DNA from: Escherichia phage vB_EcoM_G2285
Length of the DNA stretch: 64,000 bases
Sequence record: MK327933.1
Reading direction: 5' to 3' (one strand)
Within the stretch, counting starts at the first letter, position 1. The number at the start of each line of letters is the position of its first letter. Below the pieces are notes generated by a model. The model did no database searches and was not told the origin of the DNA. It was given only the letters and a program-made list of their open reading frames with translations. Position numbers and translations under genes: made by a program. Positions 17,474-49,975 of the stretch are shown piece by piece.

Positions 17474-18133
17474 TTAACCTCGATTCATAAATGCATTAAA
17501 TATTTGGTCATCAACAGAAATTTCTAATTCAACTTCAATTGCTTCAGCCTTTTCTTCAGGTGGTAATTCGTATCCACACACTACAATTTTTTCATCGATA
17601 TCAAAATATACAGAAGCAATACGATTAATGTTATTTTCAGTTAAGTCTAAATCAACATCAACATCTTTTTGACCTACACTTAAAGGATAACTAATACGGG
17701 TTATTTTATTATCTTTAACAAAGAGTCCACCAACATACTCTGTACTACGTTTGAAGTTTACACGTTTCCGAAATGAAAGATATGATGCATCTTTACCATG
17801 AGCCCTGCTCATAGGACATAATGAATAACTAGAATAAGAGATGTCAAATCCTACACCTTCAATATGAGCCAACGTGTCATGATTAAACCAATTATAATCA
17901 TATGCCAAATCCATTATATTGTAATATGTGAAAGGCACAGGATTAACATCATATGTTGTACCTTTAAAATCTGCCCAGGCAACGATTTCGTTATCTTTAA
18001 CAATTACAAAAATTACACCGAGATGGTATCCGTTATTATTTTCATTCGGCGTTATATTATAACATTGTGCATTAGGAAATTTACCATATTTAAATGGCGC
18101 ATTTTTGTGCATATAATAAATCATATTATTCAC
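17474..18133 (-). CDS. hypothetical protein
   Basis: 219 aa ORF. Confidence 0.5.
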   Translation of the reverse strand: MNNMIYYMHKNAPFKYGKFPNAQCYNITPNENNNGYHLGVIFVIVKDNEIVAWADFKGTTYDVNPVPFTYYNIMDLAYDYNWFNHDTLAHIEGVGFDISYSSYSLCPMSRAHGKDASYLSFRKRVNFKRSTEYVGGLFVKDNKITRISYPLSVGQKDVDVDLDLTENNINRIASVYFDIDEKIVVCGYELPPEEKAEAIEVELEISVDDQIFNAFMNRG

Positions 18134-18419
18134 CTGTGATTTCGGTTACGATATCTTTGTTATCGAAATTAGGGTCACAATACAAAACATAGTTGTACTG
18201 CATGATACCGCCAGACTTAAGTTGTTCAACAACTTTATTAACCATATTAGGACGGTCTCGTTTAGTGATGTTCATGATATCAGAGAAGATTTGTTGTTCA
18301 ACATCTTCTTGATTTGCAGTCATTGACCACTCACAGAGGTCTTTATCATAACCTGCCGTAACTGGAGCTGGTGCACATGATACTGCAAGTAAGATTGCTG
18401 CCAATGATAACTTTTTCAT
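18126..18419 (-). CDS. sp: Spackle periplasmic protein (lysozyme inhibitor, superinfection exclusion)
   Basis: 97 aa; signal peptide, GYDKDLCEWSMTA..GGIMQYNYVLYCD matches recalled T4 Sp. Confidence 0.85.
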   Translation of the reverse strand: MKKLSLAAILLAVSCAPAPVTAGYDKDLCEWSMTANQEDVEQQIFSDIMNITKRDRPNMVNKVVEQLKSGGIMQYNYVLYCDPNFDNKDIVTEITGE

Positions 18420-18448
18420 TTTAACTCCTTAGTTGATTTGATAGGACT

Positions 18449-18478
18449 ACTATACTATAGTCCATCTATAATGTAAAC
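18449..18478 (-). promoter_or_regulatory. early-type promoter (-35 GTTTAC, -10 TATAGT in palindrome GGACTA..TAGTCC)
   Basis: minus GTTTAC-N18-TATAGT then CAAATCAACTAAGGAGTTAAAATG. Confidence 0.5.
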
Positions 18479-18482
18479 AAGT

Positions 18483-18731
18483 TTATTCTTTTTCGCGAAT
18501 AATAATTACTTGTTGAGGCTGCTGAGCAGATTTCTTTTCGGCAACGATAGACCAAATTAAAGTTCCAATCCAACCAATCATCGTCCAGTTAAAGAGTAAA
18601 GATACAAAGAAGATTGCTGTTGTGCTTTTTGTGCCACGAATAAGTGTTATTACCCAAGGCAACATGTAAATGATGATTGAACCAATACCTGCGATTAAAA
18701 CTGCTACTGAACTAGCTACGAATAATTCCAT
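18483..18731 (-). CDS. superinfection-immunity-family membrane protein (Imm-like)
   Basis: 82 aa, two TM segments, PWVITLIRG..NWTMIGWIGTLIWSI pattern typical of Imm family. Confidence 0.5.
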   Translation of the reverse strand: MELFVASSVAVLIAGIGSIIIYMLPWVITLIRGTKSTTAIFFVSLLFNWTMIGWIGTLIWSIVAEKKSAQQPQQVIIIREKE

Positions 18732-18792
18732 GTTAATTTCCTCTTGATTTGTTATGTTTATAGTATCTTGTTTTAACTTTGGTGTAAACCAA

Positions 18793-19161
18793 TTAATTAA
18801 ATTTGTTTAAACGTTCAATACACTGGACGTAGTTATTCGCGATTTGTTTCTGGGTAGGCTCTTTACCAGTTGTTTCAACATAGCGAATGAATGCGATTTC
18901 AGTAGCCCGTAAGCAATGTTCTTTAACGCGTTGTTCTTTTGACAATGCTACAGTATCAGAGTCACGATAACGTTGAGCACGGGCATCAGCTTGAATCATT
19001 CGATTACCTACAGTAACCGGGTCTTCCACTTCAACTTTAGGTTGTTCATATTGTTTAACATTCGGATTGTAAATCAGTTGGCCAACATTATTAGGGATAA
19101 AGCCATGAGCACCACATCCGGTTAATCCAAATACCATTGCTAAAGCGATTAATTTTTTCAT
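18793..19161 (-). CDS. lipoprotein
   Basis: 122 aa; signal peptide with lipobox LTGC. Confidence 0.6.
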   Translation of the reverse strand: MKKLIALAMVFGLTGCGAHGFIPNNVGQLIYNPNVKQYEQPKVEVEDPVTVGNRMIQADARAQRYRDSDTVALSKEQRVKEHCLRATEIAFIRYVETTGKEPTQKQIANNYVQCIERLNKFN

Positions 19162-19232
19162 TTCAATTTCCTCTGTAGTTGATAGAAAGATAGTAACACA
19201 GTATGTGGGGCTTGTAAACAGTTATTTTAAAA

Positions 19233-19421
19233 TTATCGAAAATCTGCTTCGAAAACTTTCTCGTCATTAATAAATGCTTTAACTAATGCATTGTTCACTT
19301 CAGCAAGTTGTACCGTAACCCACTCGATTTCTTCGCGATCACCTGATAACATGATATCTTTAGTGAACATCTCACCGCTTTTAAACCAACCGATAAAAGT
19401 AACTTTAGTTAATTTGCTCAT
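19233..19421 (-). CDS. dmd: Dmd antitoxin (discriminator of mRNA degradation)
   Basis: MSKLTKVTFIGWFK..MFTKDI..YAEVNNALVKAFINDEKV matches recalled T4 Dmd; start set at internal ATG. Confidence 0.82.
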   Translation of the reverse strand: MSKLTKVTFIGWFKSGEMFTKDIMLSGDREEIEWVTVQLAEVNNALVKAFINDEKVFEADFR

Positions 19422-19735
19422 ATTTCCTCGCAAAATGCCCATTCAGCATGATAAACTGTAGCGCCTTTAGTATTATTCATTTGAACTACGTCTACCGGAG
19501 AAATTACTCGATAGAGACGTGGTTCACCTCCATAAGAGCGTGCTGCTCGTCCTGCATAAATCTTTGCTAAACCGATATCTTCAGTAAAGAATACACGATC
19601 CAAGTTTTTCTTACGTCCAGTTTCAGACAGAACTCCTGTTTCTTCAGGAGGACAAAGCATGTTTTCGATGTTAGCTGAACTACTTGAACCGTGATAAAAA
19701 ATCTTAAATTCTGCTTTACAATCGATGGTTTTCAT
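19418..19735 (-). CDS. Arr-like ADP-ribosyltransferase-fold protein (candidate)
   Basis: 105 aa; FYHGSSS.. (HG[ST] motif), VFFTED, YRVISP blocks align to recalled Arr rifampin ADP-ribosyltransferase. Confidence 0.45.
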   Translation of the reverse strand: MKTIDCKAEFKIFYHGSSSSANIENMLCPPEETGVLSETGRKKNLDRVFFTEDIGLAKIYAGRAARSYGGEPRLYRVISPVDVVQMNNTKGATVYHAEWAFCEEI

Positions 19736-19761
19736 TTTGTTCTCCAGTAGTTGATAGGTCT

Positions 19762-19790
19762 ATAATAACACAACTACTGGAGAAGTAAAC
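19762..19790 (-). promoter_or_regulatory. early-type promoter embedded in 14-bp-arm palindrome (arms 19740-19753 / 19771-19784)
   Basis: minus GTTTAC-N17-TATTAT; downstream arm CAACTACTGGAGAA contains the SD. Confidence 0.55.
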
Positions 19791-20165
19791 TTAAAAATGT
19801 AATTTAGATATATCTGCGTTGATTTCGTTTTGGTTTGCGTCATATGCAATTAAACGAACCGCTTTAGATGGGTCATTCAATGCATAGAAATGATGGAACA
19901 TTGCTCGAACGATATCACCATTTACGAGTTCTACCTGGATAGGAGAACCTTTTTCGAGTTGGAAATGTTCATAAGCTTTGATGGTTCGTAGATAATCAAG
20001 TTTTTGATTTCCAGCTCCAACTATTTGTACGATACGTTTGCCTGTGTTTTCCATACGAGATACAATAGATTTAGGAGCAAGAATAACGTAGGTTGCCAGC
20101 GGAGAAACTACTTCAACAGTTGTGTTTTCGGTGATTGCAGTAAAAATTGCTTGAGACATATTCAT
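19791..20165 (-). CDS. hypothetical protein
   Basis: 124 aa ORF between gp41 and dmd, not in the T4 backbone as recalled. Confidence 0.5.
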   Translation of the reverse strand: MNMSQAIFTAITENTTVEVVSPLATYVILAPKSIVSRMENTGKRIVQIVGAGNQKLDYLRTIKAYEHFQLEKGSPIQVELVNGDIVRAMFHHFYALNDPSKAVRLIAYDANQNEINADISKLHF

Positions 20166-23860: not shown

Positions 23861-24760
23861 TTATTCCTCGATTACGACATCTTCATATTTAGGTATATTA
23901 TACGGTGAAGAAATTAAAGCATTAAAGTAGATGAACTCACCAAGACCTGGATGGAATACTTCTTCAGGATTTTCGAAATATTGAATCTTCGGACGTCCTT
24001 TAAGAATTTGATAGTACTCAGTTTTAGTTGGTTTAAAAATTCGAATCAGCGCTTCTTCAGGATACTTATTTCTGTCGAAGCTATTATTTGGATCGGTTAT
24101 ATAAAGCGGTTGACCTAATTGAATTGCACATTCAACCACTTGTTCAAAACGATAGCATGGGTCACTAATTCGAAACGGATGAAAAATACCATCTAGATGA
24201 ATAGGAGCCAAATCACCTACAAGACGCTGCATGATGGAAGGACGTATAACTTTCTGCGTTACGATAATCTTATTACCATCGGCACCAGCGTTAACCAGCA
24301 CTTCTTTTTGACGTTCATTCAACACAGTAGTTTGAAGTGAACGATTAACCGACAACATGTCGGTTTTTAAGAATTCGTCAATATAAAAACGTGGTTTATT
24401 AGGGTCTGCCGTGATATTGAAATTGAATTCCACATCAAAAGCGCCGTCATATCCAGTGATATCTGTGATTAGAAAATCACAATCATAATAAGCAATTAAT
24501 GAATCAACCACAAATTCATTTTCAGACCAGAAATATTTACGAGTGTTATACGCGTTATCTTTATACCATAATGGAACAAACTTAAATTCCGGGAAAAGAC
24601 GTTCGCATTCTTTAATATCAGATGCATTACGTGGATATGTAATCACATCACCTGGATTAGCACGGTGCAAATGAAGTTGGAAGTTGCCATCCTTAAGGAT
24701 AGCATACTGTCCAGTTTCATAAGACCGCATACTCAAGATTGGTACGCGGAAAATAGCCAT
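23861..24760 (-). CDS. hypothetical protein in the position of T4 beta-glucosyltransferase
   Basis: 299 aa; tightly coupled to flanking genes; no recognised motif. Confidence 0.5.
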   Translation of the reverse strand: MAIFRVPILSMRSYETGQYAILKDGNFQLHLHRANPGDVITYPRNASDIKECERLFPEFKFVPLWYKDNAYNTRKYFWSENEFVVDSLIAYYDCDFLITDITGYDGAFDVEFNFNITADPNKPRFYIDEFLKTDMLSVNRSLQTTVLNERQKEVLVNAGADGNKIIVTQKVIRPSIMQRLVGDLAPIHLDGIFHPFRISDPCYRFEQVVECAIQLGQPLYITDPNNSFDRNKYPEEALIRIFKPTKTEYYQILKGRPKIQYFENPEEVFHPGLGEFIYFNALISSPYNIPKYEDVVIEE

Positions 24761-25476
24761 TAGTCAAGGAATCCTTTAACATAATCAAAATCACGTTCAA
24801 ACACATGGGCACTTACCATGGTATGAGTATAATCACCAACTTCTACACCACATTCGTTAGCGATATAATGAAGTAATTTTCCTTGGAGATAAAAATCCAA
24901 CTGCATAACAACAGCACAGTTCTGGGAACGCATATGACAGTGGGTATAAAGCTTACCATCACGAATATAATAAGTCACTGAGTCAGTACATGGATATTCA
25001 AGCGTTTCGTCCGAATCAAGCAAAGCCTGATCAGAACTTTCTAGAATTTGGAACACAACTCTTCGAGAGTTAGGCTTCTCTTTAAGTTCTTTTAGAAGAG
25101 CTGGTAATTGGGCCGCAATGCGAGGACCATAGAAAGTGTTGAAGTTTGCCGGCAAAACATCTGATTTTGGTTTAGAAATAAATTTAGCGACATTAGGATA
25201 TGCCTTAAACGCTTCTTCTGCGTTGGTACCACCAGAAATCATAAACTTCCAGAAGTCTTCGGCATATTCATAAGAGATGCGGTTAATACGTGGGTCGGTC
25301 ATTTTGAATGATGATGGAGTGTCAACAACTACTGTCATAGACCCAATTTCATTACAACGTCCAATACGAGAATCAGTTACGAATTCCGGGTTTTCTAAAA
25401 TTTCACGATTGACTGCTTTAAAGGCGGTTTGAAAATCTGCGGCTTTGATATATTTCATTGTGTTATGTTTTCCCAT
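24760..25476 (-). CDS. thymidylate-synthase-family pyrimidine hydroxymethylase (gp42-like, divergent)
   Basis: 238 aa; NSRR, YPCTDS (catalytic Cys), HMRSQN blocks of TS/dCMP-hydroxymethylase fold; N-terminal half unlike recalled T4 gp42. Confidence 0.6.
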   Translation of the reverse strand: MGKHNTMKYIKAADFQTAFKAVNREILENPEFVTDSRIGRCNEIGSMTVVVDTPSSFKMTDPRINRISYEYAEDFWKFMISGGTNAEEAFKAYPNVAKFISKPKSDVLPANFNTFYGPRIAAQLPALLKELKEKPNSRRVVFQILESSDQALLDSDETLEYPCTDSVTYYIRDGKLYTHCHMRSQNCAVVMQLDFYLQGKLLHYIANECGVEVGDYTHTMVSAHVFERDFDYVKGFLD

Positions 25477-25505
25477 GTTTACCTCAATACAATTTATTAT
25501 ATACT

Positions 25506-25530
25506 CAATTCATAAAGCTTATTTGAATTT
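25506..25530 (-). promoter_or_regulatory. middle-promoter-like element (MotA-box-like AAGCTTTA, 11 bp, -10 TATAAT)
   Basis: minus AAGCTTTA-TGAATTGAGTA-TATAAT then GAGGTAAACATGG. Confidence 0.4.
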
Positions 25531-25653
25531 CTTAGCGATGTTGATATAACGTAAAGCTTCAGCATCAATACTTCCAAGAACACTATGAAGAAATGCATCA
25601 GCGTAGTATTACAATTGAACAGGTTCTTTAATCACTTTAGCCGCTTTGGTTTT

Positions 25654-25677
25654 AAAAAGGCCCATCAGGGCCTTTTT
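25654..25677. terminator. bidirectional rho-independent terminator
   Basis: perfect palindrome AAAAAGGCCC-ATCA-GGGCCTTTTT, T-runs on both strands. Confidence 0.7.
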
Positions 25678-25754
25678 AAGAATTTGTTCGTTAGTGTTCA
25701 GTTTCGTAGTCAAAATCTCTTCATTAAGTTGGTGGTTAAAAGTTTTTCTAGAAA

Positions 25755-26915
25755 TCATTCCGGGTACCTCAAAGCGTCATCAGAGTTAGTTATATCAATA
25801 ATAGATATAGAGTTTTCTGCTAACCCGGTTTTAGATAATTGACGTTTATAATATCTTTCACAATATGTACACGTCGTCCCGCAGATTTCATTAGCACAAT
25901 CGAAATCTGGATGTCTGAACCACCTTTTTTCTAAAAAGCCATCTAACAAAGAGGTTTCAATATTTACTGTATGTGAAAACTCTGTCTCATTTTCAAGAGT
26001 GAAAATGGTCTCTAAAGGCTTCCACAGTTCTAACAAATTACCTTCAAACTTTTCAGAAGCATAAGCTTCAAGAACTTTCAAAATGTAGTCTGTGCTACCT
26101 GTACGTCCTGAAACTTTGAATTGAGTGATACCAATATCATTATAAAGTTTCAAATCTTGAGGACGAACAAAACGAGTTCTCAACCAGTTAAATGGATCTG
26201 TATCACGAGCTTTAATACAGTGCTGCATTGGATATCCATTTAAAGATTTGGCATCATCAGCTGTAACATCAGTACTATGGAAAATATAGCAAGAGTCACG
26301 ATAACTACAATGTGTTGTATACCCTTTACCAGCATTAGAACAGAACTCATTTACAAGAACTTCAAATATTATATTGTTCTTATTGCAAAACTCTGCTGCA
26401 CGCTTCAGGAAAGAAACTGAACGGTTCTTATGAATTCCACAGCAGACCTTTTTGATATTATATTGGTCATGCAAGTATTTGATTTGAGTTACAGCATCGA
26501 CATGTAGAATTGTTGAAACTTCAATCTCAATATCTTTATTGACTTCACGAACAATTTCCATAACAACAGGGTTAGCGATAGTAATACGCCATACGCCTAT
26601 TGACCAAAGATACTGAACATAATCCTGAATAGCTTTCTTCTTCCACTCAACTAGTTCTCTTTTTGAACCAGGATTTATCGTGTTGAGTGTATAGTTAAAG
26701 CAAATACCTAATTCGTTACAACGTTTAACGTAATCTTCTAACATCTTTTTGTCAACGTCAGGAAGCCTAAAATCAGGTCTGGCTGCTACAAAAGCCATTT
26801 CTCTTGTAGAGCCGTATACTTCGTTTATCAAGCTATTAGGATAAGTTTTATTGAGCTCTACGATTTTATCAAGAAGAGCTAAATCAAAATTCGTTCCGAT
26901 TTTAAAAGTATTCAT
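25755..26915 (-). CDS. Cys-rich enzyme of unknown function (weak peptidase-U32-like resemblance)
   Basis: 386 aa; C-terminal C-x4-C-x3-C-x2-C cluster plus VCCG, CSNAG, HCSYRDSC. Confidence 0.5.
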   Translation of the reverse strand: MNTFKIGTNFDLALLDKIVELNKTYPNSLINEVYGSTREMAFVAARPDFRLPDVDKKMLEDYVKRCNELGICFNYTLNTINPGSKRELVEWKKKAIQDYVQYLWSIGVWRITIANPVVMEIVREVNKDIEIEVSTILHVDAVTQIKYLHDQYNIKKVCCGIHKNRSVSFLKRAAEFCNKNNIIFEVLVNEFCSNAGKGYTTHCSYRDSCYIFHSTDVTADDAKSLNGYPMQHCIKARDTDPFNWLRTRFVRPQDLKLYNDIGITQFKVSGRTGSTDYILKVLEAYASEKFEGNLLELWKPLETIFTLENETEFSHTVNIETSLLDGFLEKRWFRHPDFDCANEICGTTCTYCERYYKRQLSKTGLAENSISIIDITNSDDALRYPE

Positions 26916-26972
26916 TTTTTTTGCATCTCACGTTAATTGACGCGATGGTTTTTGCAGGTCTTACTTAAATTA

Positions 26973-27374
26973 TTATAGATTCGGTTTATACGATTTAAAT
27001 GTTTCGAATTCGCCTTTATTCATAAGAGCTTTGAATTCGTCAGGACGCATAGCTTTGTCGTCGATAATCCAATCATATACTGGTTTATGTGTTAGCAAAT
27101 TATGGTACTTCAAACCAATGTTTTCCAAGTTCTGAATCAGACTTGGGAGAATGTCAATTGCTATACGACCAGGACCTACTGACTTCATACCGCGAGCAGT
27201 GTAAAGCGTTATGGTATGCCCTGCATCATACAGGGCATTAATGGCAGACACCATTTCGACGTCAGGTTTGAAGTTCACGTAATCACGATTGTTATTCCAC
27301 TCTGTTATACAATCATCGACATCAAAACAAAGATTAAGCATGTTTTCTACACGGTGCATTAGATTCGTTCCCAT
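26973..27374 (-). CDS. HAD-superfamily phosphatase
   Basis: 133 aa; motif I LCFDVDDCIT (DxDx[TV]) near N-terminus; alternative start 27359 overlaps upstream stop. Confidence 0.6.
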   Translation of the reverse strand: MGTNLMHRVENMLNLCFDVDDCITEWNNNRDYVNFKPDVEMVSAINALYDAGHTITLYTARGMKSVGPGRIAIDILPSLIQNLENIGLKYHNLLTHKPVYDWIIDDKAMRPDEFKALMNKGEFETFKSYKPNL

Positions 27375-29044
27375 TGATGAGTGATATCGCCACCGATTGG
27401 ACGATAGGAAACACCAGTTTCTTTATCAGTTAGTACCCATTTACCAGGATTTTTTGTAATCAGAGTAGCCGTTACAGGTTCTGCTACGTCATAACTAATA
27501 GAGCCGTCCTGAAGTACACGGCCCATATTACGTAATTGCTTAGTCAGAAGTTCCATACCTTTATAATATGCGGCTACCGCTTTAAGTGGATTATTCTTAA
27601 AATAACCACCTAATGCAATCCAGATAATTGCCACTGCCAAATGATGATACTCGTTAAATGAACTCATCTTTCCATATTTGTAAACTAATGGATTGATGTT
27701 AATAGTCACATTACAAGTTGTTTCATCAATAGTAAACTGGCCCCAGGTCGGATTAGCGTTGAATTCATCATAACCTGAAACAGCATAAAGCACTTTAGCT
27801 TCATCATACAATTTTGGCCCGTAAATCTTGGTTTCGCCAAAATATCCACGAGGGTCGATAAACTTGACTTCGCCGTTATCAGTAATCATAGTATTACTGA
27901 AGTTCGGGTCACCATGAATAACAGAGTACTGTCCCTGAGAACGGTTATGATAGCGAATAAGATGTTCTAAAGCTTGTTTCAGCATTGGCTTCAGACGTCC
28001 AATCTTAGTGTAGTTCACATGTGTGATTTTACCAAATGAATCAATCAATGGTTGAATGCTTTCACAACGATCAATAACTTTCGTATAGAATTCTTTAGTG
28101 AAATCACGACGAACAGTTTCAGGACTTACAAAATAAGTGTCTGTGCTGAATTTCAGTGCATCTAAAATTGCATCAACAATTTGTGGACGAGCAAGACTTG
28201 ATTTGGATTTAATATATTCAAATGCCGGCTTACCTTTAATGCGTTCCATTTCAAAGTTATTTTCATTAACAGAAACTAACTGAGGAACTGAATCTGATTT
28301 CACTTTAAGATACCATGAAATCTCATCTTTCTGAAGAGCTCGACCTTGTTCGGTTAATGCGAATTTAGTTACAGTTTCTTCACCAATTTCAACTGCATTA
28401 AAACTACGATTAAGTTCACGAACTTCATGGGCCTTTTCAAGTTTAGGCATATCACCAAGGTCGATGATATTCATAAGCTCTGATTTATTGAATGCGCCGC
28501 TGTAAAGGAATTCTACGAAATCACGTCCTTTGCAGTATTCATGAATTTCCTCATCAGTAGAACCCATGTAGAATTCCCAGTCTTTGAACTGATAAATTCC
28601 TACAACATTACCACCTGTTGAACCTACGTTAGTGATATTTTCACCGTCGAAATTATATCGACATTCGTCACCCTTAACATAGATTGCGTTAACATTCCAA
28701 GACCATGAACCAAAATCTGGAATAATATCACACCAGTTAACAATTACGTTATGGCCGTCTAAATCTTTGTGTAATTTAGCAAGAGCATAAGCAGAACCAT
28801 ACGCTTCATCAACTGTACGAATAGTCACATTGAACCCTTCTTGCTCACAATAAGCTCGAACAGTTTCAGCAAATTTTGAATGAACTACTACAATAATTTC
28901 ATCTGCGCCAAGGTCAGAATAAATTGTATACAAATTGCTCAGAATAGTGTCTTGTTTATAGTTAACAAGCACCTTGGGAATATGATGCGTTATTGGATAT
29001 AAACGAGTTGCCAGACCAGCACCAAGAATAACAGCTTTTTTCAT
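27359..29044 (-). CDS. bifunctional sugar-phosphate nucleotidyltransferase / APH-like kinase
   Basis: 561 aa; N-terminal ILGAGLATRL NTP-transferase motif; C-terminal VIHGDPNFSN..IDPRG kinase catalytic-loop-like motif. Confidence 0.6.
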   Translation of the reverse strand: MKKAVILGAGLATRLYPITHHIPKVLVNYKQDTILSNLYTIYSDLGADEIIVVVHSKFAETVRAYCEQEGFNVTIRTVDEAYGSAYALAKLHKDLDGHNVIVNWCDIIPDFGSWSWNVNAIYVKGDECRYNFDGENITNVGSTGGNVVGIYQFKDWEFYMGSTDEEIHEYCKGRDFVEFLYSGAFNKSELMNIIDLGDMPKLEKAHEVRELNRSFNAVEIGEETVTKFALTEQGRALQKDEISWYLKVKSDSVPQLVSVNENNFEMERIKGKPAFEYIKSKSSLARPQIVDAILDALKFSTDTYFVSPETVRRDFTKEFYTKVIDRCESIQPLIDSFGKITHVNYTKIGRLKPMLKQALEHLIRYHNRSQGQYSVIHGDPNFSNTMITDNGEVKFIDPRGYFGETKIYGPKLYDEAKVLYAVSGYDEFNANPTWGQFTIDETTCNVTININPLVYKYGKMSSFNEYHHLAVAIIWIALGGYFKNNPLKAVAAYYKGMELLTKQLRNMGRVLQDGSISYDVAEPVTATLITKNPGKWVLTDKETGVSYRPIGGDITHQWERI

Positions 29045-29085
29045 GTTGAAGTCCTCATTGGTAAGTAGGAGTATTGTACACTATT

Positions 29086-29229
29086 CTAGTTAAAGCATTC
29101 ATACTTTGCTTGTAGTCCAATCATAATCCATCCAATCACAAGTGTTGGAATCATTACCGGAGCCGTTAAGCTCCAGTAGATAGTCATGAAAAGCATCAAT
29201 AGTAAAAGTCCTATTGTTATTGCTTTCAT
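29086..29229 (-). CDS. 47 aa hydrophobic membrane peptide, absent from ORF track
   Basis: hand translation MKAITIGLLLLMLFMTIYWSLTAPVMIPTLVIGWIMIGLQAKYECFN; ATGA overlap with upstream stop. Confidence 0.4.
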   Translation of the reverse strand: MKAITIGLLLLMLFMTIYWSLTAPVMIPTLVIGWIMIGLQAKYECFN

Positions 29230-29861
29230 TGTTCGCCTCGTAACATGGCACCTAGTGCACCGCCTGGATGGAACTTAAGGAAGTCATTAGAGGTAAATCC
29301 ACGTTCAGACGAAAGGTTGATAGCAAACGTATCGATAAGCGCTAACAACAATGTAGTTGACATCGTCGGAGCTAAAGAGTTCTCGTCAACTTCTACCGCG
29401 ATACCGGTACAGAACGTATAATCAAAAAGAGCTTCGTATTCTTGTGGAATGTCTGGGTTACAATGCAACAGAATCTGTTTGACGTTCGGACGAATCATTT
29501 TAAGATGCTTAGCCACGCCTATCATTTCTTCAGTCTTACCAGAACGACTGATGTGAACTAATACATCATTAGGTGCAATAAATCCTGCATCACCGTGAGA
29601 ATAATGCCCAGTGTTCAAGTACATACTCGGGATACCGAGTGAAGCAAATGTCTCAGAAGCTTTAGTTGCGATATTAGCATTCTTACCAACACCTGTAATA
29701 ATTACTCGGCTTTCATAATTACTAAGTCCAGGGCGTCGAAGAGTTTCTAGAATAGCATTATAACGAGCAGGGTTTTGACTAATTACTTCGGCCATAGTGG
29801 CCAAAGAAGAAGCTTGTTTTATGATTGCGTCAATAGCGATAGTAATAGGAGTAGTTTTCAT
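29226..29861 (-). CDS. SIS-domain sugar-phosphate isomerase (arabinose-5-phosphate isomerase-like)
   Basis: 211 aa; ITGVGKNANIATK, HGDAGFI, ISRSGKTEE, APTMSTT, FHPGGALG match KdsD/GutQ SIS-domain blocks. Confidence 0.7.
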   Translation of the reverse strand: MKTTPITIAIDAIIKQASSLATMAEVISQNPARYNAILETLRRPGLSNYESRVIITGVGKNANIATKASETFASLGIPSMYLNTGHYSHGDAGFIAPNDVLVHISRSGKTEEMIGVAKHLKMIRPNVKQILLHCNPDIPQEYEALFDYTFCTGIAVEVDENSLAPTMSTTLLLALIDTFAINLSSERGFTSNDFLKFHPGGALGAMLRGEQ

Positions 29862-29901: not shown

Positions 29902-30905
29902 TCAAAAATCGAACATATCGAACAGAGATGCTTTCTTCTCGTAATCGAGTTTCGCTGCTGATGTGAATCCTTCAAGTGGTTTAATAAATGTCTTCTCAAG
30001 GAGAACAGTGTAGTCCATCCAATGAAGTACATCGTCTTTAATTAAATCTGTGATTTCAGTACCAGAAGGCCATGCGATACATTTATCACCGAATGGGTTT
30101 CCTTCACGTAAAGGCAGAACATATACTTTTTCACCTTCTACAACTTGCGGTGCATCGATATTACCTTTGATAGCCCGGTTATACGTCAGAATTCCACGAA
30201 TATGGAACGGGCATTTAGGACCAGGGAATCCACCGACGTCATATTTAGCAATGTTATTCGCAGAAGATACCGACGCGATGCTAATATAATTCAATTGACG
30301 GAATTCTTTTTCAAACTCTTTAAAATATTCTTGTAATGATTCTTCGCCTTCCTGAAGCATACGACGAATACATTCCTTAAGAGCTTTCTGTACTGCTTTA
30401 GGAGTCGAAGATTTCTGAGTCTCTAGACCCATGATTTTAAGCTTAGGTTCAGCGTATCTGGTTCCTTCCATATCCCACACGTTTAATGCATAACGTTTCT
30501 TACCAGTCCAGAATCCACCAATACCTTTAGAACCAAGCGGAGGACCAGCAATAGCTTCTCGGTCCATGAACATCAAATGTTGTTTATTGTTCATGTATTC
30601 ACACATTTCACGGAAACCTCTATCAATAGCTGGTTCCATACGTTCACGTGCAAACTTATCTAAGAAGTCTACCCAATGGTTGGTATCACGGAATTTAGAT
30701 TCACCAACCTTATCAATAATTTTATCTGCAGATACGTAAATGGAGTCTGTATCACCATAAAGAACGAAAGCTTCACCTTCTGTACCACAAACTTCATTCA
30801 GATATTCATTAACTTTACGTTCAATCCACTGTAAAGCCATTTGACCAAATGTTGTGATTGCAGTAGCATTACGCAAATCGTAATAACGGAACCAAACGTT
30901 ACCCA
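29902..30905 (-). CDS. 43: DNA polymerase gp43, cistron B exon 2 (palm/thumb, YGDTDS)
   Basis: translation from GNVWFRYYDLRNATAIT through YGDTDS to ..FDMFDF matches recalled RB69/T4 gp43 C-terminus; 5' boundary set at inferred splice site. Confidence 0.85.
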
Positions 30906-31137
30906 CATTATGTTCGACTGAGGTCGTTAATCTCAGCCCGGAATTATATCCAGCTGCATGTCGCCATGCAGAGCAGACTATATCATCATCTTTATAGATG
31001 CTATGCGCTTCCACCCACTTGGGCGTACTCCTTTCGGATAGTCGTTGCACGTTCCTCATAGAGGCTTCGCTCAGGATTGTCTACTAGAGATGTCCCCTGA
31101 ATTCACATAGTTTAAAGTGCGCCGAGTTATTTGGTTA
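30906..31137 (-). ncRNA. group I intron (td/nrdD-like, ORF-less, 232 nt) in gene 43
   Basis: interrupts motif B codons (..LYGAL | GNVWF..); core elements CTCTAGTAGACAATCC and GATATAGTCTGCTCTGCATGGCGACATGCAGC; starts TAA after exon U, ends ..CATAATG. Confidence 0.75.
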
Positions 31138-31306
31138 ACGCACCATACAGACTATTAATAAGCAATTTACGGTTAATCTGAGCCGTATTACCTGCTACTT
31201 CAGCCAATTCGCAGTTTTTAAGATGTTGTTCTAAATCAGCTTTGCTTAAGGACTTGAGATAAGAAATTTCATCTTGTGAAAAGTCTTGAGTGTATGTTAA
31301 ATTCAT
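31138..31306 (-). CDS. 43: DNA polymerase gp43, cistron B exon 1 (motif B)
   Basis: ATG overlapping HEG stop (TAATG); encodes MNLTYTQDF..NTAQINRKLLINSLYGA, the polymerase K-x3-NSxYG region. Confidence 0.7.
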
Positions 31307-32127
31307 TATATTTTATTCCTACAGTTATCAAAGTGCCAACGTTTCATACCAGATAATATACCTTCTTTACCACAGTGCGGACACGTTGCTTTAATCTCTT
31401 TAGCTTTAGCCCAGTATTCTTTCTTAGAGTCTGAAAGGGCCTTATTATGGGCTTCCGAATTGGTTTTGCCTAATCTTGTTTTAACTATATTAGGATTCTC
31501 TGAAATTCTTTGCTTCATCCTAGAAGACTGTTTAGAACGTTGTTCTTTCGACCAGCCATCAGATAAAACTTTCTTTTGTTCTTCAGTTTTGGTTGTACCG
31601 AAGAGATGGGATTTATTTTTAGAATAGTATTCTTTGAGACCTATAGATTGTTTTAACGAAGTTTCAGCAGAATGCTTTGTTCCTATTTTATTTTTACTTG
31701 CTACAGCCCAATTGGCTGCTGCTATGGCTTTATACTTTTCAGGATTTTTGGCTATAGTGATTTTAATAGAATCTGAAACCTTTTTAGCAATCTCTTGGGA
31801 CTTCATAGGATTTGGTAGATTTAAAGAATTTACATAATCCCAACCGCCTTTACCACCAGGATTAAGATTATATGTATCATTTCTTTTTACAAAATCTTTA
31901 TCTACAATTTTAGCTTCAAGGGCATAAGCTTCATCTTCATTATCGAATACTTCCAAAATGGTCTTTTGGAGATTTTCTATACCGTATTTTTCAACGGCTG
32001 CTTTAACAACAGGTCCAGAACCGCGGTAAATATCGTTTTGATTAGACTCATCACACTTATGAACACCTACATAAATTTTACCATTAACGACATTAGTAAT
32101 TTGGTAAACAGTATAAACAGTTTTCAT
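31306..32127 (-). CDS. GIY-YIG homing endonuclease inserted within gene 43
   Basis: VYQITNVVNGKIYVGV GIY-YIG motif; C-terminal CPHCG..MKRWHFDNC zinc finger; start set at ATG with SD GGAGG. Confidence 0.75.
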   Translation of the reverse strand: MKTVYTVYQITNVVNGKIYVGVHKCDESNQNDIYRGSGPVVKAAVEKYGIENLQKTILEVFDNEDEAYALEAKIVDKDFVKRNDTYNLNPGGKGGWDYVNSLNLPNPMKSQEIAKKVSDSIKITIAKNPEKYKAIAAANWAVASKNKIGTKHSAETSLKQSIGLKEYYSKNKSHLFGTTKTEEQKKVLSDGWSKEQRSKQSSRMKQRISENPNIVKTRLGKTNSEAHNKALSDSKKEYWAKAKEIKATCPHCGKEGILSGMKRWHFDNCRNKI

Positions 32128-32153
32128 AATATCCTCCATTAGTTGATAAGACT

Positions 32154-32183
32154 ATAATACCACATCCTTGTGGTATTGTAAAC
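32154..32183 (-). promoter_or_regulatory. early-type promoter for the intragenic endonuclease
   Basis: minus GTTTAC-N18-TATTAT then AGTCTTATCAACTAATGGAGGATATTATG. Confidence 0.45.
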
Positions 32184-33703
32184 TATTTTGAAGCCAAAAT
32201 CTCTTTAATTATTTCAGCATTTCGCTGTGCAGCCAACATGTAGCGCTTATGTTCTTTACGCTGCAAGAATACCTTAGTGATTTCTGTTGGAATCACACCA
32301 TCACGGTCTTTATAATACATCATGCCGTTAGGAGAGCAACTGTACACATCTGAAGGACGTTCGGCGATTGCGTTAATATACTCATGCAGTGGAGCTACTT
32401 TAAACGTTCCTGCTATTGTTTCCGGGCTAATATTCACTTGGCGAATAATACTTGGATACAGAGATGTAAGGTCGAAACTCATTACATATTTGTATCGATT
32501 TGGAATAGGTTCCTTAACAAAAGCGCCAGGATAAGGTTGAACCGGGTGAGAACGACCTTGTGGAATCACCTTGTTCTGCTCTTTAAGGCTATTAAAAATA
32601 ATAGCATCCCATGTTTTAATTGGGCTAAACACAGATTGAATCTGTATCTTAGCATAATAACCCATGTCCAAGCTCAAGTTGATGAACTGACGCTTAGCAT
32701 CAATTTGCAATACACGATACACGTCGATAATGTTATAAGAAATATATCGTTGGTGATTGCTTTCACGAAGCTTAGAAATAGGGCCGTCATATTTCAGTTT
32801 ACCAACGTTCAATTCAAATTCTGAAATGTAATCCAGAGAATATGACGGTTGATTGGTAAAAGAGAATTTTTTGTAAAGGTCAATGTAATCAAGAACAGAG
32901 ATACCGAACAATGTAATGATTTCACGAGAACCATACATGTTTTCGATAACTTTAACACGAGTTTTACGATGTGGTGACAACCGTTTTGCTGTGGATTCGC
33001 CAAAAATATTCTTGATTCGGTTATACACATATGGAATATCAAATGACTCAACGTTCCATCCAGTCAAAATGACAGGAGTTTTCTGTTGCCAGAAGTTGAG
33101 ATATTCCATCAACAATTCTTTTTCGTTATCGAACGGCATATAAATGATTTTATCGATAATTTCAGATGGAACTTCATCACCGCCTTGTTCTTGAAGCTTA
33201 GCAGCGATTTCAATAGACCATTCTTCTACATTACCATACGGAGAATTCAATAGATCAAATACATAGAACCTGTCGTCAATTGAGTCATAATGGGTGATAG
33301 CATCAATCGGATGTTTTGCTTGTGACGGCTCAGGGAACCCATCCGGAGATGTTACTTCGATGTCGAAGTTAGCCACACGAATTTTTGTATGGTCGTATTT
33401 GATTTCATAGTTATAAGTGTCAGACAAATACGCCAATTTGAAATCGTCCATGCCAAGTGCTTCAAGTCCGATATCTTCCATGCGTTTAATCCATTGGGAG
33501 GCATCACGCATATTAGCGAACAGCTTACGAGTACACGGCTTACCGTAGATATCGAAATATTTCGTAGCCTGACTTTCTGGACAATGAGCAAACAGTGATG
33601 GTTTATATTCTACTTCACGAGTACGTTCACGGCCATTAGAATCGATGTAACGTTCAAAAATTGAATCACCAATCTGTTCAACCGTTAAGTAAAATTCTTT
33701 CAT
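32183..33703 (-). CDS. 43: DNA polymerase gp43, cistron A (N-terminal and 3'-5' exonuclease domains, motif A)
   Basis: 506 aa; MKEFYLTVEQIGDSIFERYID..FDIEV..YNIIDV..DLTSLYPSII matches recalled RB69 gp43 N-terminal half; ends at in-frame stop. Confidence 0.9.
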   Translation of the reverse strand: MKEFYLTVEQIGDSIFERYIDSNGRERTREVEYKPSLFAHCPESQATKYFDIYGKPCTRKLFANMRDASQWIKRMEDIGLEALGMDDFKLAYLSDTYNYEIKYDHTKIRVANFDIEVTSPDGFPEPSQAKHPIDAITHYDSIDDRFYVFDLLNSPYGNVEEWSIEIAAKLQEQGGDEVPSEIIDKIIYMPFDNEKELLMEYLNFWQQKTPVILTGWNVESFDIPYVYNRIKNIFGESTAKRLSPHRKTRVKVIENMYGSREIITLFGISVLDYIDLYKKFSFTNQPSYSLDYISEFELNVGKLKYDGPISKLRESNHQRYISYNIIDVYRVLQIDAKRQFINLSLDMGYYAKIQIQSVFSPIKTWDAIIFNSLKEQNKVIPQGRSHPVQPYPGAFVKEPIPNRYKYVMSFDLTSLYPSIIRQVNISPETIAGTFKVAPLHEYINAIAERPSDVYSCSPNGMMYYKDRDGVIPTEITKVFLQRKEHKRYMLAAQRNAEIIKEILASK

Positions 33704-49786: not shown

Positions 49787-49966
49787 TTAGTAAACGTTAT
49801 AAAAGTCTCGATGAAAACGTTTATATTGGCGAATCATTTTCTTAGTAGGACGTGTTACTGAAATAATTGAAGTAGCCATAGTCGGATTGTTTGGAGCACC
49901 AGTCATAACAAATTTCCAGGTCTTCTCCCCGTTTTTTCTTTCAGTATAAATCGTTTCTGTTCTCAT
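49787..49966 (-). CDS. 59 aa protein, absent from ORF track
   Basis: hand translation MRTETIYTERKNGEKTWKFVMTGAPNNPTMATSIISVTRPTKKMIRQYKRFHRDFYNVY. Confidence 0.35.
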   Translation of the reverse strand: MRTETIYTERKNGEKTWKFVMTGAPNNPTMATSIISVTRPTKKMIRQYKRFHRDFYNVY

Positions 49967-49975
49967 AATAAGCCT

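Follow-up and report, generated by a model that had tools for sequence, protein, structure and literature searches.

Genes sp, imm and imm.1 lie side by side in a Mosigvirus, very probably through relocation of an imm.1-imm pair

The genes sp, imm and imm.1 are immediate neighbours in Escherichia phage vB_EcoM_G2285 (MK327933.1), of which we analysed a stretch of 64,000 nucleotides, hereafter the window (Table 1). They form three consecutive open reading frames (ORFs) on the minus strand between positions 18126 and 19161, where a sequence-only reading of the same DNA had placed an envelope-targeted trio. Spacers of 61 nt (imm.1-imm) and 63 nt (imm-sp) separate them, and a GAGG or GGAG ribosome-binding site precedes each start codon. 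These are genuine genes rather than chance ORFs; the plus-strand ORFs that lie within them were rejected as genes, being antisense, short and without family matches. The window is 98.7% identical to Mosigvirus genomes and its phage is a Mosigvirus, an RB69-like T-even phage; the 2.9-kb stretch with the trio is 98-99% identical across about 150 Mosigvirus records. Searches of NCBIfam and PADLOC returned no match for Sp, Imm or Imm.1, and Rfam returned no RNA family in the trio region, its sole match in the window being a group I intron elsewhere.

Table 1 Features of the trio region and of the interval between genes 43 and 42 (positions in the window)
Feature	Position	Strand	Description and evidence
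61.2/adfA, anti-DarT factor A	17474-18133	minus	Downstream neighbour; PF23813, E 1.1e-120; 66% identical to T4 gp61.2
sp (Spackle)	18126-18419	minus	97 aa; PF25676, phrog_1586, T4 Sp alignment
Hairpin GGACTATAGTATAGTAGTCC	18444-18463		Overlaps -10 box of sp site; fold -15 kcal/mol, z -2.7
Early-promoter-like site before sp	18449-18478	minus	GTTTACA-N17-TATAGT
imm	18483-18731	minus	82 aa, two hydrophobic segments; PF14373, phrog_1039
Early-promoter-like site before imm	18760-18789	minus	GTTTACA-N17-TACTAT
imm.1 lipoprotein	18793-19161	minus	122 aa; PF17578, phrog_1754
Early-promoter-like site before imm.1	19190-19219	minus	GTTTACA-N17-TACTAT
61.4 remnant TTTTAAAATAA	19222-19232	minus	3' end of gene 61.4; pairwise alignment with RB69
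dmd, antitoxin-like discriminator of mRNA degradation	19233-19421	minus	Upstream neighbour; PF17587, E 1.4e-20, phrog_2102; NBG1 and RB69 annotation
T4 42.1 homologue	29086-29229	minus	47-aa membrane ORF; tblastn 52% identity, E 1.3e-13

The identification of the sp product as Spackle is borne out by a match to PF25676 (T4_Spackle) over residues 1-96 of 96 profile positions (E 1.1e-42, 145 bits, cut-off 27), by phrog_1586 (E 2.9e-42) and by a gap-free alignment to T4 Sp at 66% identity. The protein also matches PDB entries 6x6o and 7cn6 ('Protein spackle'). Its N terminus consists of MKK and a hydrophobic run, followed by VTA/GYDKD, and the mature crystallised chain of 7cn6 aligns to residues 23-97; the signal peptide is predicted to be cleaved before G23, leaving a mature protein of 75 residues that starts with GYDKD. 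T4 Spackle acts in the periplasm by binding and inhibiting the gp5 tail lysozyme, with a Cys29-Cys81 disulfide pair and contacts to the gp5 lysozyme at S32-M33-T34-A35, Q37 and N76 (PMC7677548). All of these residues are identical in the window protein, which by its likeness to T4 Spackle is predicted to be secreted into the periplasm and to inhibit the gp5 tail lysozyme there.

The second gene had been described as encoding a two-transmembrane protein of the Imm family, with a profile search proposed as the means of refuting that assignment. Run against Pfam, this search favours Imm: the protein covers all 42 positions of PF14373 (Imm_superinfect; E 3.1e-14, 53 bits, cut-off 27.9), and it matches phrog_1039, 'immunity to superinfection' (E 1.3e-29). 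Its hydropathy profile agrees with two membrane segments, with hydrophobic stretches at about residues 3-31 and 38-64 (hydropathy windows 1-33 and 38-64) around a short basic loop, R32-G-T-K35. The family label, correct as it was, understated the case. PF14373 is a broad family that is found also in unrelated phages, and the 82-aa protein could on that ground be a generic paralogue, with the true imm elsewhere or absent. This is effectively refuted by 64% identity to full-length T4 Imm (83 residues, first to last, E 1e-36), the C-terminal QVIIIREKE tail included; by the single copy of imm, which gives one tblastn match in the window and occupies one place per record across 1017 phage records; and by the company of the gene, which travels with an imm.1 orthologue. 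A second imm near gene 42 was considered and rejected, as tblastn found none there in the window. Judged by its sequence, the protein is the T4 Imm orthologue, relocated, and not an extra member of the family; its product is a putative inner-membrane superinfection-immunity protein. The gene lies between dmd and sp and not in the T4-type position between genes 43 and 42. What truly sets the window apart from T4 is this map position, a synteny trait that does not define the Imm family. The roles of T4 Imm and Sp in superinfection exclusion have been described elsewhere (PMC6832632).

The third protein, read earlier as a lipoprotein, indeed has a lipobox, L-T-G-C at residues 13-16 (Cys16), after MKK and a hydrophobic run, with Gly at +2. 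It matches PF17578 (DUF5481; E 3.1e-9, 37.6 bits, cut-off 27), phrog_1754 (E 4.9e-28) and T4 Imm.1 (33% identity, E 7e-19), which is itself in the same Pfam and PHROG families; homology makes it the T4 Imm.1 orthologue and not a new partner. Homology to T4 61.4 was rejected, as T4 61.4 belongs to PF23945/phrog_2375 and its gene is deleted in the window. In family alignments, six genera share G15, C16 and C83 without exception, and C114 is conserved in nearly all of 29 sequences. The AlphaFold2 model has a low-confidence N-terminal part and then a helical hairpin with Cys83 and Cys114 (residues ~75-120, pLDDT >90). We predict that Imm.1 is lipid-modified at Cys16 and probably sorted to the outer membrane, the latter because Asp at +2 is absent in every family member examined (by the E. 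coli +2 rule alone). Between T4 and the window Imm.1 has diverged to 33% identity, compared with 58-86% for 13 neighbouring orthologues, and it is the fastest-diverging protein of the region. Searched against 1.84 billion representatives, the single sequence gave only 7 matches; a word-indexed single-protein search gave 3, and the 26 matches of a profile search were all phage-type lipoproteins. The alignment profile found no match among PDB sequences, and fold searches with the AlphaFold model against the PDB and BFVD returned its own family and noise, with no functional clue. Many public records call imm.1 'immunity protein', 'iduronate sulfatase' or 'hypothetical', and no test here supports those names.

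Each of the three genes is directly preceded by a match to the early-promoter motif, 29-30 nt from the start codon. The window has 11 matches to this motif where 0.35 would be expected, and every one of them is on the minus strand. The sites before imm and imm.1 fit the T4/PST consensus TTTACW-N17-TAYWAT (PMC4122927) exactly, and the -10 box of the sp site (TATAGT) is off at one position. A terminator scan found no terminator-like site in 18126-19232; of the three spacers, the one between imm and sp is alone in folding better than shuffles, into a stem-loop without a T-run. The promoter before imm.1 looks chimeric. Its upstream half agrees with the T4 61.4-end/P_sp region at 22/25 positions versus ~15/20 with T4 P_imm.1 (hand counts); T4 61.4 ends in ATTTTAAAATAA. 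Its downstream half matches T4 P_imm.1 at ~64% versus ~52% for T4 P_sp, a modest discrimination by hand counts, and it shares an 11-nt run, CTATCAACTAC, with the T4 imm.1 leader.

The arrangement of these genes varies among T4-like phages. T4 imm maps near gene 42, as the sequence-only reading stated: imm lies at 26373-26624 of the T4 map and the imm.1-imm pair at 26373-27013, between genes 43 and 42, with sp at 19758-20051, ~6 kb from imm. The 43-42 interval holds imm and an adjoining phrog_1754 lipoprotein gene in Tequatrovirus, Gelderlandvirus, Dhakavirus (order reversed), Muldoonvirus and Jiaodavirus. In Tequatrovirus, Dhakavirus and Jiaodavirus, sp and imm are at separate loci, and in the latter two sp has no imm beside it. 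Throughout the genus Mosigvirus, the imm.1-imm pair sits instead between dmd/61.4 and sp. An Imm.1-family gene adjoins imm in all T4-like phages sampled (six GenBank genera), the window pair being on the same strand, and a survey of IMG/VR found an adjoining Imm.1-family ORF at 19/19 T4-like Imm loci versus 0/61 other Imm-family loci. T4 gene 42.1 overlaps the imm stop codon, and its homologue in the window is still in the 43-42 interval, beside SIS and nucleotidyl-transferase genes. The same interval encodes a 561-aa protein equal in length to RB69 ORF53_52c, a likeness by length alone; ORF53_52c is an arabinosylation candidate (PMC6024577). We take 42.1 as a footprint that marks the ancestral imm locus, in an interval that in Mosigvirus now carries sugar-modification genes.

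The trio therefore very probably consists of the T4 sp, imm and imm.1 orthologues, with the imm.1-imm pair relocated beside sp in Mosigvirus. The pair would have moved as a unit into the variable region between genes 61 and 41. Given the chimeric look of the promoter before imm.1, recombination at an early promoter, or close to one, was probably involved. The window lineage would later have lost 61.4 by a clean deletion. Parsimony over six genera, rather than a rooted tree, suggests that the move was into the sp region and not out of it in the other genera. Shuffling of promoter-stem-loop (PeSL) cassettes is a plausible route.

The co-localisation of two exclusion functions with a lipoprotein had been taken to suggest a consolidated exclusion module. 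The adjacency is real, and there is something to be said for a module held together by selection, through co-regulation or through the whole exclusion function moving as one cassette: the genes are contiguous with spacers of 61-63 nt, conserved at 98-99% in the ~150 Mosigvirus records, all three products are envelope-targeted, and the same type of early-promoter-like site stands at the same distance from each start codon. We nevertheless consider such a module clearly unlikely. The adjacency occurs in one genus, where one relocation suffices to account for it; sp and imm are apart in the three genera named above, and imm is also in the 43-42 interval in Gelderlandvirus and Muldoonvirus; and the 61-41 interval is variable, with 61.4 and other ORFs gained or lost among close relatives. 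The genes of the trio could be co-expressed without being neighbours, because a promoter-like site stands before each of them. Most simply, the neighbourhood of sp and imm is a by-product of one relocation and not a functional fusion.

Three readings of the role of Imm.1 were weighed. It is quite possible, if not what we would expect, that Imm.1 has no part in exclusion and is a small envelope protein with another role, kept beside imm only by common descent in a region that rearranges slowly. A literature search on imm.1 and DUF5481 returned no relevant paper and no reported function, and fold searches with the predicted structure, a simple helical hairpin, yielded nothing informative. Cloned T4 imm by itself is reportedly sufficient for exclusion (Lu and Henning, 1989). 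Against a role unrelated to exclusion stands the persistence of the adjacency in three arrangements, with imm.1 upstream of imm (T4-type), downstream of it (Dhakavirus) or moved with it (Mosigvirus). The two genes also nearly abut or overlap in several genera (the gap is 11 nt in T4, where imm.1 is upstream, and 10 nt in KP185, and in PS2 the genes overlap by 4 nt), which points to co-expression. Because its linkage to imm survived three different arrangements, Imm.1 is a candidate third exclusion factor of T-even phages. As we picture it, it would be anchored in the outer membrane and have a flexible tether and a helical hairpin stapled by a disulfide; it would work with Imm in the inner membrane, for example at the point of contact between the envelope and the arriving tail tube. 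This specific proposal is tentative and rather doubtful; the linkage through the Dhakavirus inversion and the Mosigvirus relocation would support it, as would the position of Imm.1 as the fastest-diverging orthologue of the region.

Very unlikely, in our view, is that Imm.1 masks a receptor in the manner of the outer-membrane lipoproteins Llp of T5 and Cor of T1 and phi80, blocking adsorption independently of Imm. The lipobox and the lack of Asp at +2 in the members examined do predict outer-membrane sorting, fast divergence is expected of a protein that tracks a variable partner, and one family member weakly matches the Cor PHROG (E 8e-4), in the signal-peptide region only. However, T-even exclusion acts after adsorption: infected cells keep adsorbing secondary phages, and lysis inhibition depends on this secondary adsorption (PMC6832632). 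Imm.1 has no sequence or fold likeness to Llp or Cor past the signal peptide, and receptor masking leaves the strict linkage to imm unexplained.

Under the relocation account, the course of events in an infected cell would be as follows. Right after infection, host RNA polymerase would begin to transcribe each gene from its own early promoter, the three promoters lying close together. Sp would be exported, cleaved before G23 and bound to the gp5 tail lysozyme of later phages, stopping their digestion of the cell wall, as established for T4. Imm would insert in the inner membrane and block the crossing of incoming DNA, a function established genetically for T4. Imm.1 would be lipidated at Cys16 and probably carried to the outer membrane; because of its conserved linkage to imm, it would most likely assist Imm-type exclusion or help to protect the envelope from secondary adsorption.

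In itself the window is of little consequence: it carries textbook T-even exclusion functions in a layout present in the RB69 annotation. It does offer a clean, datable example of a two-gene cassette that very probably went from one variable region of a T4-type genome to another, with 42.1 left as a footprint and sugar-modification genes now at the old site. The pairing with imm makes Imm.1 a candidate, inexpensive to test, for a part in the poorly understood mechanism of Imm, and if Imm.1 is a third component, the exclusion genes of Mosigvirus would make up one compact, early-expressed cassette of three genes.

Compared with known systems, the trio consists of the ordinary T4 exclusion genes sp and imm and their usual neighbour imm.1, and its sole difference from T4 is position. 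The closest counterpart is RB69, whose record AY303349 annotates dmd, 61.4, imm.1, imm and sp gene by gene; at 18654-19689 it has the same three genes with the same order, orientation, spacers, promoter-like sites and names. By visual count, few substitutions separate the two phages from imm.1 through imm into the start of sp, and Sp is 99% identical. In RB69 the 213 nt of 61.4 still stand between dmd and imm.1, whereas the window has a clean deletion of ~206 bp that leaves the last 11 nt. The longer form with 61.4 is found in 13 of the 30 best matches, so that both variants occur among close relatives.

T4 Spackle (gp61.3; PDB 6x6o, 6xc0, 6xc1 and 7cn6) has, like the window protein, 97 aa, a signal peptide of equal length and the mature N terminus GYDKD, and its gene is just upstream of 61.2 in both phages. 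The upstream neighbour of sp is 61.4 in T4 but imm in the window, and between the -35 box and the start codon the promoter region of the window gene cannot be aligned with that of T4. The T4 imm.1-imm pair comprises the same two genes with imm.1 first, and the lipobox and two cysteines of Imm.1 are conserved; the window pair is next to sp, whereas that of T4 is between genes 43 and 42. The T4 spacer of 11 nt has no promoter-like site, in contrast to the 61-nt spacer of the window with a site of its own, and 42.1, which adjoins imm in T4, was left behind in the 43-42 interval of the window. The PeSL cassettes shuffled in T4-type phages (Arbiol et al. 2010, PMC2839356; Comeau et al. 2014, PMC4122927) resemble the relocated pair in having borders at early-promoter-like sites, in lying in a variable region and in the chimeric-looking promoter at the left border, but two of the three borders of the trio show no evident stem-loop terminator. 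With the lipoprotein exclusion factors Llp of T5 and Cor of T1 and phi80, Imm.1 has in common that it is a small lipoprotein predicted to be in the outer membrane, and nothing more; past the signal peptide there is no detectable homology, and T-even exclusion leaves adsorption unblocked.

The sequence-only reading had placed Spackle, an Imm-family membrane protein and a lipoprotein at 18126–19161. This is exact: three minus-strand ORFs in a row (97, 82 and 122 aa), each with an ATG start and a GAGG/GGAG ribosome-binding site 5′ of it, occupy the interval, and the observation is confirmed because they match the Spackle, Imm and lipobox-lipoprotein families. The trio is flanked by T4-type genes 61, 61.1, 61.2 (AdfA), dmd and 41, and the 2.9-kb stretch that carries it matches some 150 Mosigvirus (RB69-like) genomes at 98–99% identity. 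Counter-defence genes surround it on both sides (Table).

The 97-aa ORF is Spackle (PF25676, 145 bits versus a cut-off of 27); it aligns ungapped with T4 Sp at 66% identity, matches the solved chains 6x6o and 7cn6, and retains the Cys29/Cys81 pair; it also retains S32–A35, Q37 and N76, which are gp5-lysozyme contacts in the crystal structure (PMC7677548). T4 Sp is an exported protein that inhibits the tail lysozyme of phages arriving later (PMC7677548); by orthology, the window protein would likewise be made by early transcription and act in this way. Profile searches bore out the assignment of the 82-aa protein to the Imm family (PF14373 Imm_superinfect above threshold; phrog_1039). It has two hydrophobic segments linked by R32-G-T-K35 and aligns with T4 Imm at 64% identity from residue 1 through the C-terminal QVIIIREKE. 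Because tblastn locates imm at one place per record in 1,017 phage records, with a single match in the window, the gene is, on sequence grounds, the imm orthologue and not an additional paralogue. T4 Imm is a plasma-membrane protein that stops secondary DNA entry without blocking adsorption (PMC6832632), and its orthologue would be expected to be early transcribed too and to act in the same way.

The 122-aa protein carries a canonical LTGC lipobox with Cys16 and matches PF17578/DUF5481 and phrog_1754, families that also include T4 Imm.1, to which it is 33% identical (E 7e-19). Judged by family and alignment, it is the orthologue of T4 Imm.1, and the most diverged orthologue of the region (33% identity versus 58–86% for 13 neighbours). 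A lipoprotein does lie beside imm, as first described, but not as a new partner: T4 imm.1 already adjoins imm, 11 nt upstream of it and between genes 43 and 42, and the lipoprotein is therefore a normal imm neighbour. Imm.1 is predicted to be lipid-modified. In Escherichia coli, the Lol sorting rule makes the residue at +2 govern lipoprotein destination, proteins without Asp going to the outer membrane; because none of the Imm.1 family members examined has Asp at this position, Imm.1 should be bound for the outer membrane. Its AlphaFold model combines a low-confidence N-terminal part (pLDDT <50 for most of residues 1–38) with a confident helical hairpin (residues 75–120) that bears both conserved Cys. 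What interest remains concerns Imm.1 and what it does: fold searches yielded no clue to function, and literature searches found no paper on it. Orthologues in public records are named 'iduronate sulfatase' (T4 RefSeq included), 'immunity protein', 'Imm', 'membrane protein' or 'hypothetical'; nothing seen in this analysis supports the sulfatase or immunity names.

Pairing of imm with imm.1 extends beyond this genus. Gelderlandvirus STML-198, Jiaodavirus KP185 and Muldoonvirus PS2 encode a phrog_1754 lipobox protein of about 148 aa immediately upstream of imm, the pair sitting in the 43–42 interval, and the order in Dhakavirus is reversed (43, imm, lipoprotein). The Imm.1 alignment was also turned into an HMM and run on 80 IMG/VR loci of the Imm family: an Imm.1-family ORF is the immediate same-strand neighbour of imm in 19 of 19 T4-like loci and in 0 of the 61 others (smaller phages and prophages). 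Found in T4-type, Dhakavirus and Mosigvirus layouts, the adjacency has thus outlasted three arrangements: T4 type, inversion and relocation. Whether the trio is more than neighbours is a separate question. A consolidated exclusion module, as the sequence-only reading had it, found no support beyond adjacency in anything tested, and a shared function of that kind is improbable: each gene has its own promoter-like site, the layout is confined to one genus, one event accounts for it, and these genes occupy separate loci in other genera.

Against an expectation of 0.35, the window holds 11 copies of the promoter-like motif (GTTTACA-N17-TAnnnT), all of them on the minus strand, and 3 of the 11 lie 29–30 nt upstream of the three trio start codons. 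The motif conforms to the T4/PST early-promoter consensus, with the −10 box of the sp site (TATAGT) one position off; that consensus is tied to promoter-stem-loop cassettes mediating modular shuffling (PMC4122927; PMC2839356). Upstream of its −35, the imm.1 site agrees with the T4 61.4-end/sp promoter in 22 of 25 positions, and its downstream part has an 11-nt run in common with the T4 imm.1 leader. Because one part is sp-promoter-like and the other imm.1-leader-like, the site suggests a recombination joint, with modest discrimination. Promoter-stem-loop shuffling is a plausible route for the move of imm.1–imm, although only one trio spacer has a hairpin; this 76-nt spacer (−15 kcal/mol, z −2.7) holds GGACTATAGTATAGTAGTCC, and the hairpin has no T-run.

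Features in and around the trio, the 42–43 interval and gene 43
Feature	Coordinates	Strand	Remarks
AdfA/61.2 (anti-DarT)	17474–18133	minus	PF23813, E 1e-120; downstream of trio
Hairpin within GGACTATAGTATAGTAGTCC	18444–18463	minus	perfect 6-bp stem; overlaps −10 box of sp promoter-like site
61.4 deletion site	19220–19235		versus RB69 L009:1486–1698; pairwise comparison
dmd, then 105-aa ORF (phrog_2110) and 124-aa ORF (phrog_10668)	19233–20165	minus	both ORFs conserved; upstream of trio
42–43 interval	24760–29861	minus	SIS-domain protein, 211 aa; nucleotidyl-transferase-domain protein, 561 aa; 133-aa protein without family; peptidase-U32-like protein, 386 aa
42.1 homologue	29086–29229	minus	47-aa membrane ORF; 52% identity to T4 42.1
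gp43 residues 562–903	30930–29905	minus	98% identity to intact NBG1 gp43
Group I intron	30954–31170		Rfam, 83.6 bits; between gp43 parts
59-aa ORF	31127–31306		gp43 residues about 514–570, only 53% identity
GIY-YIG (SegE-like) ORF	31306–32139		between gp43 parts
Early-promoter-like site	32154–32183		between gp43 parts
gp43 residues 1–503	33703–32195	minus	98% identity to intact NBG1 gp43

At the old imm site, 42.1, which is without annotation in the T4 RefSeq record, is still present, and SIS, nucleotidyl-transferase and other genes are now there too. The 42.1 start codon and the stop of the SIS gene upstream share an ATGA, comparable to the overlap of 42.1 with the imm stop codon in T4. The 561-aa protein is exactly as long as RB69 ORF53_52c, which has a proposed role in arabinosyl-hmC synthesis (PMC6024577). 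The gene at the gene 42 position is only 25% identical to T4 gp42. Such content is consistent with the arabinosyl-hmC pathway of RB69-like phages.

DNA polymerase gene 43 is split (29902–33703, minus strand): a stop codon, the early-promoter-like site and the GIY-YIG ORF separate its two parts, followed by the 59-aa ORF and the group I intron (Table). Of 50,697 phage genomes, none spans 80% or more of the insert, and only Dhakavirus PSD2002, with a split polymerase annotation, shares its last 304 nt (94%). Possibly, the insert is an uncommon or novel combination of a mobile intron and a homing endonuclease.

Position is the sole difference between the trio and its T4 counterparts. Ahead of sp, Dhakavirus QL01 and Jiaodavirus pKp20 have small genes, 61.4-like or other, in place of imm; in Mosigvirus the genes run dmd, 61.4, imm.1, imm, sp, 61.2. 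Relative to RB69, the window has lost 61.4 by a clean ~206-bp deletion that leaves its last 11 nt. Presence of 61.4 is polymorphic among near-identical Mosigvirus genomes, 13 of the best 30 matches having the longer form; a weak 61.4 paralogue lies at 49808–49972 (33% identity, E 0.001). The trio arrangement is a known one with public annotation: the RB69 GenBank record gives the Mosigvirus order under exactly those gene names.
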